DNA of 64,000 nt from Escherichia coli (GTDB lineage: Bacteria > Pseudomonadota > Gammaproteobacteria > Enterobacterales > Enterobacteriaceae), in NCBI RefSeq assembly GCF_003790525.1, contig NZ_CP033632.1; one strand, written 5' to 3'. The notes beneath the pieces are model-generated. The model searched no databases, had not been told where the DNA came from, and was given only the letters and a program-made list of their open reading frames with translations. Of the stretch, positions 46,451-53,742 are shown piece after piece (position 1 is the stretch's first letter; each line of letters starts with the position of its first letter). The position numbers and the translations under genes are program-made.

Positions 46451-47270
46451 GGCACTGTTGCAAAGTTAGCGATGAGGCAGCCTTTTGTCTTATTCAAAGG
46501 CCTTACATTTCAAAAACTCTGCTTACCAGGCGCATTTCGCCCAGGGGATCACCATAATAAAATGCTGAGGCCTGGCCTTTGCGTAGTGCACGCATCACCT
46601 CAATACCTTTGATGGTGGCGTAAGCCGTCTTCATGGATTTAAATCCCAGCGTGGCGTTGATTATCCGTTTCAGTTTGCCATGATCGCATTCAATCACGTT
46701 GTTCCGGTACTTAATCTGTCGGTGTTCAACGTCAGACGGGCACCGGCCTTCGCGTTTGAGCAGAGCAAGCGCGCGACCATAGGCGGGCGCTTTATCCGTG
46801 TTGATGAATCGTGGGATCTGCCACTTCTTCACGTTGTTGAGGATTTTACCCAGAAACCGGTATGCAGCTTTGCTGTTACGACGGGAGGAGAGATAAAAAT
46901 CGACAGTGCGGCCCCGGCTGTCGACGGCCCGGTACAGATACGCCCAGCGGCCATTGACCTTCACGTAGGTTTCATCCATGTGCCACGGGCAAAGATCGGA
47001 AGGGTTACGCCAGTACCAGCGCAGCCGTTTTTCCATTTCAGGCGCATAACGCTGAACCCAGCGGTAAATCGTGGAGTGATCGACATTCACTCCGCGTTCA
47101 GCCAGCATCTCCTGCAGCTCACGGTAACTGATGCCGTATTTGCAGTACCAGCGTACGGCCCACAGAATGATGTCACGCTGAAAATGCCGGCCTTTGAATG
47201 GGTTCATGTGCAGCTCCATCAGCAAAAGGGGATGATAAGTTTATCACCACCGACTATTTGCAACAGTGCC
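46451..47270 (-). mobile_element. IS26 copy 2 (G184N variant)
   Basis: IRs present; Tnp has KRIINATLGF; right flank CACCTTCT. Confidence 0.95.
46503..47225 (-). CDS. tnp26: IS26 transposase (G184N)
   Basis: Identical to other copies except G184N. Confidence 0.95.
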   Translation of the reverse strand: MLMELHMNPFKGRHFQRDIILWAVRWYCKYGISYRELQEMLAERGVNVDHSTIYRWVQRYAPEMEKRLRWYWRNPSDLCPWHMDETYVKVNGRWAYLYRAVDSRGRTVDFYLSSRRNSKAAYRFLGKILNNVKKWQIPRFINTDKAPAYGRALALLKREGRCPSDVEHRQIKYRNNVIECDHGKLKRIINATLGFKSMKTAYATIKGIEVMRALRKGQASAFYYGDPLGEMRLVSRVFEM

Positions 47271-48501
47271 CACCTTCTGTATGGGTTGGGGCGGAGGCTG
47301 TGGCTGCCGCCGCCATTGTAGCAAATTGAAGACGGAGCGAGAGTAGAGCCACGAGCCCCGCAAACACGGCCGATACAACGAGGCCAGGGAGCGGACCAGC
47401 AAGGTCGACAAACGCGCCGGCCGCAAGCATAACCATGGGCGAGGCTGACAGCATCACCGCCGAGACCGTGCCGAGTACCCGGCCGAGAAGTTCTGGCGGC
47501 GTGCGGTTGTAGATGGCAGCGTTGAGAATGGGAGAGACTGAGCCGGTCAGCAGTCCCACGAGCGCGCCCAACAACATCAGCACCGGCACGCCTGGCAACT
47601 GTGAAAGCAGAAGCGAGCCCACCGCAGAGCCACAAAATGCCACCGCCAGCCAGTTCTGCGCTGATATCCGGGCGCCGACCGACGCATGAATGGCAATGCC
47701 AAGGAGACCACCAGCCCCCATCATTGAGGAGAACAGCCCGAGCTCTGCTACTTGGCGTCCTGCATCTACAAACAGCGCAGGCATGATGACGCTGCCGTTG
47801 GCGCCAACGATGCCCACGAAGATCATCACTATACCAAAGAGAGGGCGCAGCAGGGGTTCGCTCCAGAGAAAAGCGACGCCGGCGCGCATGGAGAGAGTCG
47901 CCGTCGTGGTCATCGTCCGAGCGGCACGCGCGGGAAGCACCCACGCGCCGAGCAGACCTGCAAGGACGGAGCAGAACGCCGTCAGCCCGAGCGTTGGCGC
48001 AGCGCCAAGCAGGCCGATTGCGGCCCCCCCAAGGGCCGGGCCACCTAGAATCGCGACGTTCCCGATCACCGCTTTCAGTGACGAGACGCGCTCAACGGAG
48101 AGCCCGGCGACGTGGCCGAGTTTGGGCAGCTCACTGTCCTGCGCGGCCATACCGGGTGCGTCGAACGCGGCACCGAGCACCACGCAAGCGATCAGCCCAG
48201 TGTTCGAGAGGGCGCCAACGGCATCGAGCAGTGGGATGCTCGCCATGGCCACGCCGCCCACCACACCCGAGATCAATGCGACGGGCGCGCGCCCGAACCG
48301 ATCGACGAGGCCACCACCAACCCACGCGCCGATGATGGTCGCGATGACGCTGCTAGCGGCCGTGGCGCCCGCCCAGGCCGCGCTCTTTGTATGAGACAGG
48401 ACGAACCATGGAAGCGCGAGGGCCGCCACCGCGTTGCCGATCCGGAAGAGAAAGGTCGCCGCGAACAGCGTCGCGAGCGGGCTATATCGACGTTCGCTCA
48501 T
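47254..48501 (-). CDS. mrx: Mrx, MFS-type protein of the mph(A) operon; 3' end replaced by IS26
   Basis: Hydrophobic 415-aa ORF overlapping mph(A) stop; last 5 codons lie in IS26. Confidence 0.85.
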   Translation of the reverse strand: MSERRYSPLATLFAATFLFRIGNAVAALALPWFVLSHTKSAAWAGATAASSVIATIIGAWVGGGLVDRFGRAPVALISGVVGGVAMASIPLLDAVGALSNTGLIACVVLGAAFDAPGMAAQDSELPKLGHVAGLSVERVSSLKAVIGNVAILGGPALGGAAIGLLGAAPTLGLTAFCSVLAGLLGAWVLPARAARTMTTTATLSMRAGVAFLWSEPLLRPLFGIVMIFVGIVGANGSVIMPALFVDAGRQVAELGLFSSMMGAGGLLGIAIHASVGARISAQNWLAVAFCGSAVGSLLLSQLPGVPVLMLLGALVGLLTGSVSPILNAAIYNRTPPELLGRVLGTVSAVMLSASPMVMLAAGAFVDLAGPLPGLVVSAVFAGLVALLSLRLQFATMAAAATASAPTHTEGGHCCK

Positions 48502-49403
48502 TCCGCTGCGGCGAGCTGCGCCTTCGCCGCAGCGAGGTACTCTTCGTTACCCGAGTCGAGGGCGAAGAGTGCGTAGGTGACCGCCCCGAACGCAAGGCGC
48601 TCCGCGATGTGGTGGGCGAGCCGCGGCCACACCCGGCCACCGGCCGCTTCATACGTGAGGAGGAGCTTCGCGAGCCCCTCTTCACCAAAGACCATAAGGT
48701 GCGCGGCCATGTCGATGGCAGGGTCATCAACGCGGGCCTCGCTCCAGTCGATCATCCCGCTGACGCGCTCCGTGTTGTCGATGAGCACATGGCCCACGTA
48801 GAGATCGCCATGCACCACCACGGAGAAATCTGGCCACGACGAATCGTCGTCGAGCCAGCGCTGCCACCGGTGGAGGCGCTTGTCGTTCACCACGAACTCG
48901 CGTCGGACGCGGTCAACGTCGTCGGCCACCTTCTGACGGGCCTGCGTCGGTGTACGGATGAGCATCCCCGCATCCACGGCGGCGGAAATGGGGACGGCAT
49001 GCAGGGCGGCGAGCGCGGTCGCGAAGCTCTCCGCGAAGACCTCCGAGTCCTGCGGCACGACCCAGTCGGGCGTGGACGAACCAGGCTGGATGACCATCGC
49101 AGTCGAGTCTTCGAGCATGGGATAGGCAACGAGCTCGGCGTTGGCCACGCGCCAGTCCGGCACCGCGAACGGCAGGCGATTCTTGAGCATTGCCAGCACC
49201 CGCGCCTCTGGTTCGACCTTCGCGCTTACCTCGGCTCGGCGCGGGATGCGCAGCACCCACCGACGTCCATCGTCGACGGTGGCGATCACGATCCTATAGT
49301 CGAGCCCAAGCTCATTGACAGTCAGCGGGCCATGGAGCTTGAGCCCATGTCGGGCTGCAAGTGCGTACAGTTGGGAGGTATCGGCGGTCGTGACTACGGT
49401 CAT
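48498..49403 (-). CDS. mph(A): Macrolide 2'-phosphotransferase Mph(A)
   Basis: MTVVTTADTSQLYALAARHGLKLHGPLTV...; 301 aa. Confidence 0.95.
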   Translation of the reverse strand: MTVVTTADTSQLYALAARHGLKLHGPLTVNELGLDYRIVIATVDDGRRWVLRIPRRAEVSAKVEPEARVLAMLKNRLPFAVPDWRVANAELVAYPMLEDSTAMVIQPGSSTPDWVVPQDSEVFAESFATALAALHAVPISAAVDAGMLIRTPTQARQKVADDVDRVRREFVVNDKRLHRWQRWLDDDSSWPDFSVVVHGDLYVGHVLIDNTERVSGMIDWSEARVDDPAIDMAAHLMVFGEEGLAKLLLTYEAAGGRVWPRLAHHIAERLAFGAVTYALFALDSGNEEYLAAAKAQLAAAE

Positions 49404-53142: not shown

Positions 53143-53157
53143 AGAAGGTGAACACTG

Positions 53158-53742
53158 ATGCCCCGCCCCAAGCTCAAGTCCGATGACGAGGTACTCGAGG
53201 CCGCCACCGTAGTGCTGAAGCGTTGCGGTCCCATAGAGTTCACGCTCAGCGGAGTAGCAAAGGAGGTGGGGCTCTCCCGCGCAGCGTTAATCCAGCGCTT
53301 CACCAACCGCGATACGCTGCTGGTGAGGATGATGGAGCGCGGCGTCGAGCAGGTGCGGCATTACCTGAATGCGATACCGATAGGCGCAGGGCCGCAAGGG
53401 CTCTGGGAATTTTTGCAGGTGCTCGTTCGGAGCATGAACACTCGCAACGACTTCTCGGTGAACTATCTCATCTCCTGGTACGAGCTCCAGGTGCCGGAGC
53501 TACGCACGCTTGCGATCCAGCGGAACCGCGCGGTGGTGGAGGGGATCCGCAAGCGACTGCCCCCAGGTGCTCCTGCGGCAGCTGAGTTGCTCCTGCACTC
53601 GGTCATCGCTGGCGCGACGATGCAGTGGGCCGTCGATCCGGATGGTGAGCTAGCTGATCATGTGCTGGCTCAGATCGCTGCCATCCTGTGTTTAATGTTT
53701 CCCGAACACGACGATTTCCAACTCCTCCAGGCACATGCGTAA
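53158..53742 (+). CDS. mphR(A): MphR(A) TetR-family repressor of the mph(A) operon
   Basis: MPRPKLKSDDEVLEAATVVLKRCGPIEFTLSGVAKEVGLSRAALIQRF...; 194 aa. Confidence 0.95.
   Translation: MPRPKLKSDDEVLEAATVVLKRCGPIEFTLSGVAKEVGLSRAALIQRFTNRDTLLVRMMERGVEQVRHYLNAIPIGAGPQGLWEFLQVLVRSMNTRNDFSVNYLISWYELQVPELRTLAIQRNRAVVEGIRKRLPPGAPAAAELLLHSVIAGATMQWAVDPDGELADHVLAQIAAILCLMFPEHDDFQLLQAHA

Follow-up and report, generated by a model that had tools for sequence, protein, structure and literature searches.

When IS26 transposes replicatively in trans, one copy of the duplicated target abuts the left terminal inverted repeat (IRL) and the other the right terminal inverted repeat (IRR) of two IS26 copies in opposite orientations (He et al. 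2015, PMC4471558), and a recent IS26 inversion has been described by the same signature, the example being a 1.22-Mb inversion in Salmonella Mbandaka (PMC12502706). The variant IS26-v1 is defined as differing from IS26 at three nucleotides, with two of these changes giving the transposase substitution Tnp26 G184N (PMC9412624), which reportedly makes the transposase more active (Pong et al. 2019, as relayed in PMC9019673). Here we describe a 64,000-nt stretch of Escherichia coli DNA (contig NZ_CP033632.1 of assembly GCF_003790525.1; "the window" below) in which copies of IS26-v1 cap both sides of what would be the mrx/mphR(A) junction of the canonical macrolide resistance module, IS26-mph(A)-mrx-mphR(A)-IS6100, the two sides now lying on opposite strands. 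A single intramolecular replicative transposition of IS26-v1 in trans very probably made this rearrangement.

The mrx/mphR(A) junction and its inverted target duplicates

Six complete 820-bp IS26 copies lie in the window, all of them with both 14-bp terminal inverted repeats (GGCACTGTTGCAAA) and with their sole open reading frame (ORF), for the 234-aa transposase, intact (Table 1). Copy 2 has its IRR toward a truncated IS4-family transposase gene and its IRL against the broken 3' end of mrx. The 8 bp that adjoin this IRL, CACCTTCT, are the exact reverse complement of the AGAAGGTG adjoining copy 4, confirming base for base the flanking 8-mers reported for the two copies in the original prediction, which had been made from the sequence alone. 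The two IS26 copies are inverted relative to each other (copy 2 on the minus strand, copy 4 on the plus strand), and the duplicates stand at opposite kinds of end, an IRL at copy 2 and an IRR at copy 4. Because inverted copies with reverse-complementary duplicates, placed at ends of opposite kinds, are the published signature of a trans event, it is reasonable to read the pair in that way.

Among the 12 IS26 flanks in the window we found no other related pair, whether direct or reverse-complementary, and the probability that any such pair would arise by chance among 12 flanks is about 0.002. AGAAGGTG or its complement occurs five times in the window against 1.66 expected, so that the 8-mer is not unique, which lends a little room to the idea that two unrelated IS26 insertions simply happen to have reverse-complementary flanks. 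The two flanks are, however, halves of one canonical sequence and can be rejoined at 100% identity, and coincidence is effectively refuted as an explanation, with a likelihood that we consider negligible.

The rejoined sequence was built by joining the reverse complement of 47271-49472 to the sequence from 53151 onward, with AGAAGGTG counted once. The rebuilt module encodes the 301-aa product of mph(A) and a 412-aa Mrx ending in ...THTEGEH, and the mrx stop codon overlaps the start codon of the 194-aa mphR(A) in the sequence TGATG. A 287-nt segment across the rebuilt junction has a match at 100% identity over its full length in each of the PLSDB records listed, and at least 80% of it is covered in 2795 PLSDB records, so that reversal restores a known, uninterrupted sequence with one copy of the target. 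The earlier placement of the target at the mrx/mphR(A) junction is borne out by this reconstruction, which is identical to canonical plasmids, and the canonical sequence does contain AGAAGGTG, once, at the mrx/mphR boundary.

Copies 2, 4 and 5 share three differences from copies 1, 3 and 6, namely the silent G459A and the double change GG613/614AA that gives Tnp26 G184N, and are thus IS26-v1 by definition, while copies 1, 3 and 6 are not. Comparison of the six copies agrees with the earlier assignment of G184N to copies 2 and 4, and adds copy 5, which had gone unmentioned. The pattern of IS26-v1 and wild-type copies matches independent assemblies of related plasmids junction by junction, with IS26-v1 at the truncated IS1 and wild-type IS26 both at the mph(A) upstream region and at aph(3')-IIa.

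The new junctions themselves are rarely seen. With 200-nt probes, none of the junctions of IS26 with mrx, with mphR or with the truncated recombinase gene has a full-length, single-piece match in PLSDB; the IS26/mrx junction has no exact match in 5426 complete E. coli genomes; exact 34-mer scans found the new junctions in neither the GTDB representative genomes nor the Joint Genome Institute metagenome contigs; and we found no description of the mrx/mphR(A) overlap as an IS26 target in the searchable literature. The 12 full-coverage PLSDB matches to the IS26/mrx probe come in two pieces, with IS26 lying some 28-400 bp further into mphR. Such arrangements, with the IS26 IRL about 28-440 bp further downstream, are present in 12 PLSDB and 14 E. 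coli records (the 200-nt query covering spans of 228-638 bp), and in several of them mphR is truncated or unannotated under the match, so that these records look like the outcome of deletion-type events. One draft contig in NCBI, RDDW01000132.1 (GCA_003686615.1), is identical over its 2388 bp to 47178-49565 of the window and encodes the same altered mrx product (mrx' below); on look-up, two samples carry this contig. It is of Illumina type, and it confirms the junction of IS26 with CACCTTCT and mrx but not the long-range order. The junction running from IS26 into CACCTTCTGTATGGG... can serve as a lineage marker for short-read data, and one NCBI draft already has it.

We considered the possibility of an assembly artefact, or of a mixture of isomers, in which the DNA flanked by the inverted 820-bp repeats is in fact reversed and mph(A)-mrx'-IS26-mphR is co-directional. 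Both junction sequences read alike in either orientation, a cluster of six IS26 copies in 22 kb is difficult for an assembler, and the sole independent confirmation is the 2.4-kb short-read contig just described, which ends inside IS26 and is blind to orientation. The identity of each copy as IS26-v1 or wild-type nevertheless matches what independently assembled relatives have at these junctions, which argues against collapsed or shuffled repeats, and we regard this explanation as quite improbable. Even the alternative isomer has IS26 at the mrx/mphR(A) junction, and this placement is not in doubt.

Mechanism and donor copy

In the one-step transposition proposed here, the two 3'-OH ends of an IS26-v1 would each have attacked a different strand of the 8-bp target AGAAGGTG. 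In the canonical module this target spans the last mrx codons and the putative mphR(A) ribosome-binding site. Replication would have doubled both the insertion sequence and the target and inverted the DNA from donor to target, the products being IRL joined to CACCTTCT and mrx on the present copy 2, and IRR joined to AGAAGGTG and mphR on the oppositely oriented copy 4. The earlier claim that an IS26-mediated inversion has separated mphR(A) from mph(A)-mrx is supported both by the reconstruction and by the placement of the duplicates at an IRL and an IRR.

To place the donor we considered relatives of the locus. About two thirds of the Salmonella 4,[5],12:i:- plasmid pIncX1 (CP145534, 20,220 bp) maps to 47260-62803 of the window, in five rearranged blocks at 99.5-100% identity, and the only segment of it with no counterpart in the window is 2495-8963 (partition genes, ddp1 and the 5' part of the recombinase gene). 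The un-inverted order, running from truncated IS1 through IS26-v1 and IS6100-mphR-mrx-mph(A) to IS26, is present in E. coli pMCR1-PA (CP029748), and both CP145534 and CP055007 have an un-inverted mph module with a single IS26-v1 and nested deletions on its IRR side. The junction of the truncated IS1 with the IRL is the same in CP145534, pMCR1-PA and copy 4, while IS1 is truncated elsewhere in CP055007. On the IRR side, the spacer to IS6100 is 53 bp in pMCR1-PA and 26 bp in the window, the latter being a 3' subset of those 53, and the truncation lies about 101 bp into IS6100 in CP145534 and about 140 bp 3' of mphR in CP055007. These nested truncations are the trace of a single active IS26-v1 that has repeatedly deleted adjacent DNA. 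In the window, the ancestral flanks of that single element are split, the IRL side being on copy 4 and the IRR side on copy 5.

Two routes could lead to this arrangement. In route (a), the module would first have been joined to other DNA via IS26-v1, producing copies 2 and 5; copy 2 would then have acted as the donor in an attack on AGAAGGTG, flipping the 5.05-kb interval 47271-52322 and creating copy 4. In route (b), the donor would be the resident IS26-v1 between truncated IS1 and IS6100, as in the IncX1-type relatives, and its attack on AGAAGGTG, 1.9 kb away on the IRR side, would have flipped the 1.95-kb interval 53143-55087 (mphR-IS6100). The products would have been copy 4 and a copy with IS6100 at its IRR and CACCTTCT at its IRL, and the latter would finally have been duplicated, or recombined via IS26, during fusion with other DNA to give copies 5 and 2. 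The two routes would be equally short and would end in the same final sequence; the donor and the flipped interval are thus ambiguous. The nested deletions in the relatives suggest a copy acting repeatedly on its IRR side, which mildly favors route (b). Route (a) corresponds to the original prediction; the inversion at mrx/mphR stands, but copy 4 need not derive from copy 2, as copy 5 and the comparators indicate. The whole island can be derived from CP145534 by minimal IS26 events in several ways, with histories of similar length.

A history in two steps would also end in the sequence observed. IS26-v1 would first have inserted at AGAAGGTG by intermolecular replicative transposition and cointegrate resolution, leaving AGAAGGTG directly duplicated around IS26 with mrx and mphR outside, and a RecA-dependent flip between inverted IS26-v1 copies would have followed. 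The substrate for the second step is present: of the three identical copies of IS26-v1, two stand in inverted orientation at a distance of 5 kb. Recombination between IS26 copies is also commonly invoked (PMC4471558, PMC5052281). This history, however, calls for two events where one is enough, and is less parsimonious. Direct flanking duplications are rare at IS26 (PMC4471558), and none of the six copies here has one, nor is there any record of a simple IS26 insertion at the mrx/mphR site in PLSDB or in the 5426 E. coli genomes. We consider the two-step history unlikely.

Several observations nonetheless weigh against the single transposition in trans. The one-step event and an insertion followed by recombination of inverted copies are predicted to give one identical sequence. 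The un-inverted immediate parent with the same outer junctions is in no database record searched, and the junction of copy 3 with the truncated recombinase gene, like both target-duplicate junctions, is absent from PLSDB. No other pair of IS26 flanks is duplicated, and the surrounding history thus needs several further, untraceable IS26 events. The case at this locus is real but of an ordinary kind, a well-understood IS26 reaction in an instance not catalogued before. It adds one more case of IS26-v1 reshaping a resistance island, and for annotation and epidemiology the inversion would explain the position of mphR(A) on the other strand, 5.9 kb from mph(A)-mrx.

The separated genes and their regulation

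The sequences of mph(A), mrx and mphR are themselves canonical (99.9-100% identity), but the three genes do not form a co-directional operon, as mph(A)-mrx' is on the minus strand, mphR is on the plus strand and the TGATG overlap is lost. Translation bears out the prediction that mrx ends in IS26 sequence: GHCCK stands in place of EH, the canonical C-terminal pair of residues, and translation stops within the IS26 IRL (stop codon at 47254-47256). The coordinates likewise agree with the position given for mphR(A), 15 bp after copy 4 on the opposite strand and about 5.9 kb away, since its ATG at 53158 is 15 bp past copy 4 and 5.9 kb from the mrx break (47271). A Shine-Dalgarno-like motif, AAGGTG, lies 8 nt upstream of this ATG within the AGAAGGTG duplicate and is the putative mphR ribosome-binding site; mphR keeps the motif because it lies inside the duplicated target.

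The 69-bp flank upstream of mph(A) is identical in CP145534, CP055007, CP029748 and a further comparator (L001). The MphR operator is presumed, from the literature, to lie within 49404-49472, and mph(A)-mrx' would stay under its own promoter and operator. According to PMC5052281, transcription starts 31 bp upstream of mph(A) and expression of the unit is macrolide-inducible, and MphR is called a negative regulator in the statement that PMC10840416 cites from Noguchi 2000. For its part, mphR would lose the mph(A) promoter and, with the TGATG overlap gone, its translational coupling. The change in regulation suggested in the original prediction is plausible; the new same-strand neighbors of the two tnp26 genes, described next, were not part of that prediction.

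At its new location, mphR starts 67 nt past the stop codon of the copy 4 transposase gene, tnp26, on the same strand (53088-53158). At the other broken end, tnp26 (G184N) of copy 2 starts 47 nt past the mrx' stop codon, also on the same strand (47207-47256, minus). In neither gap, from the copy 4 tnp26 stop to mphR or from the mrx' stop to the copy 2 tnp26, was a sigma-70-like promoter or an intrinsic terminator predicted, and the RNA structure there is not unusual (z = -0.84 for tnp26-mphR and -0.04 for mrx'-tnp26). A gap with no predicted promoter, terminator or unusual RNA structure makes read-through from tnp26 the likeliest source of mphR mRNA, and mphR is probably transcribed only in this way, in which case the supply of MphR would be constitutive and no longer autoregulated. 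Copy 2 tnp26 (G184N), for its part, appears to hold the former place of mphR behind the inducible promoter. We also considered a hybrid promoter for mphR with its -35 element in the IS26 IRR, and rejected it as the probable driver, as its -10 element, CACTGA or ACTGAT, would overlap the ATG and the promoter scan was negative.

Taken to its limit, this arrangement would mean that two circuits have been rewired, with mphR placed solely on the weak, macrolide-independent tnp26 promoter of copy 4 and a hyperactive tnp26 placed third behind the inducible mph(A) promoter, a proposal that we put forward as doubtful speculation. If it is true, MphR autoregulation is broken and basal mph(A) expression would rise; macrolides (erythromycin, azithromycin) would boost the IS26 transposase and hence further rearrangement of resistance genes; and both effects would reside on a P1-like phage-plasmid able to move by transduction. 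The rearrangement would gain in importance only if separation of the repressor changes azithromycin resistance, or if the mph(A) promoter drives the G184N transposase.

The resistance island and its relatives

The locus is part of an IS26-rich multiresistance island (41096-64000) of at least 23 kb, which continues past the end of the window and follows a P1/P7-like phage-plasmid backbone (7080-40730). The island carries an AAC(3)-II-family gene, mph(A), aph(3')-IIa and a RelE-type toxin-antitoxin pair, together with an IS1294-like copy, an oqxR-like gene and the 3' end of oqxB. The sequence to the right of copy 6 was considered as phage backbone, but it has no phage match and is the oqxR/oqxB sequence.

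Table 1. Features of the mph(A) locus and the IS26 copies of the window
Feature	Position	Strand	Remarks
IS26 copy 1	41096-41915	-	Wild-type
IS26-v1 copy 2 (Tnp26 G184N)	46451-47270	-	820 bp, 14-bp repeats, three differences from wild-type
mrx(A)'	47254-48501	-	415 aa; from translation
Target-site duplicate CACCTTCT	47271-47278		Adjoins copy 2 IRL at 47270
mph(A), macrolide 2'-phosphotransferase	48498-49403	-	301 aa, intact; 99.9% to CP145534 over 47260-50293
mph(A) upstream region, canonical 69 bp (promoter and presumed MphR operator region)	49404-49472	-	Intact; adjoins copy 3 IRR
IS26 copy 3 (wild-type)	49473-50292	-	Usual IS26 upstream of mph(A)
IncX1 backbone fragment	50293-52322		99.97% to CP145534 8964-10998, with its annotation
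Recombinase gene, 3' part	50293-50519	+	CP145534 annotation
Small hypothetical gene	within 50293-52322		CP145534 annotation
dqlB, two DinQ-like toxin ORFs	50881-50976, 51537-51620	-	Annotation in IncX1 relatives
IS1 end, 226 bp	52097-52322		Sequence and IS1 annotation of relatives
IS26-v1 copy 4 (Tnp26 G184N)	52323-53142	+	IRL at truncated IS1; IRR at target duplicate and mphR
Target-site duplicate AGAAGGTG	53143-53150		Adjoins copy 4 IRR at 53142
mphR(A), TetR-family repressor	53158-53742	+	194 aa, intact; 100% to CP145534
IS6100, complete, 880 bp	54182-55061		Read from the sequence
IS6100-to-copy 5 spacer, 26 bp	55062-55087		
IS26-v1 copy 5 (Tnp26 G184N)	55088-55907	-	IRR toward IS6100
IS26 IRR-end fragment, 91 nt	57660-57750		
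IS26 copy 6	61984-62803	+	Wild-type

Some further features of the window deserve mention. The two dqlB ORFs (31 and 27 aa, for the DinQ-like type I toxin DqlB) each have a repeated sequence upstream. The antitoxin and RelE-like toxin genes (56951-57473) lie in an IncX1-derived segment and are followed by the 91-nt remnant of an IS26 IRR end. Two identical 1689-bp IS91-family (IS1294-like) copies form direct repeats, at 20024-21712 in the P1-like backbone and at 57798-59486 in IncX1-derived DNA. Cargo not related to P1, at 96-4676, encodes a nucleoside-permease-like protein of the major facilitator superfamily, a hydrolase of the metallo-beta-lactamase fold and a 724-aa protein with an N-terminal LacI-type DNA-binding region; PADLOC gave no defense-system match for these cargo proteins.

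Set beside known systems, the rearrangement resembles the trans events of He et al. 2015 (PMC4471558) in having inverted IS26 copies, reverse-complementary duplicates at an IRL and an IRR, and a known sequence that is restored on rejoining. It differs from the catalogued events in its target, the mrx/mphR(A) overlap, in its apparent actor, the G184N variant, and in the ambiguity of the donor. The window has every gene of the canonical IS26-mph(A)-mrx-mphR(A)-IS6100 module at 99.9-100% identity, and with them the 69 bp upstream of mph(A), the IS26 that precedes these and a full-length IS6100, but here mphR-IS6100 is inverted and 5.9 kb off, Mrx ends in GHCCK in place of EH, and an IS26-v1 caps each broken end. 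The variants in which IS26 has truncated mphR (IS26, truncated mphR, mrx, mph(A) and IS26, in that order) likewise have an IS26 IRL, oriented as here, a short way downstream of mrx, and their operon has been deprived of the repressor gene. In contrast to those variants, mphR is intact here and retained in trans, and repression could therefore persist.

The closest relatives by sequence are the IncX1 mph(A) plasmids of Salmonella (CP145534; pIndS104_3_29k, CP101357, PMC9426611), which share the junction of truncated IS1 with IS26-v1, the junction of IS26 with aph(3')-IIa, the dqlB region and the mph module. Fusion of mph(A)-bearing IncX1 plasmids with other replicons via IS26 has been described in Salmonella Indiana (PMC9426611), in which P1-like resistance phage-plasmids are also known (PMC9430114). 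In the IncX1 plasmids mphR is in its operon position, whereas the corresponding blocks of the window are rearranged inside a P1-like phage-plasmid, and an IncX1 mph(A) plasmid embedded in such an element is arguably more notable, as a context, than the inversion that it contains.

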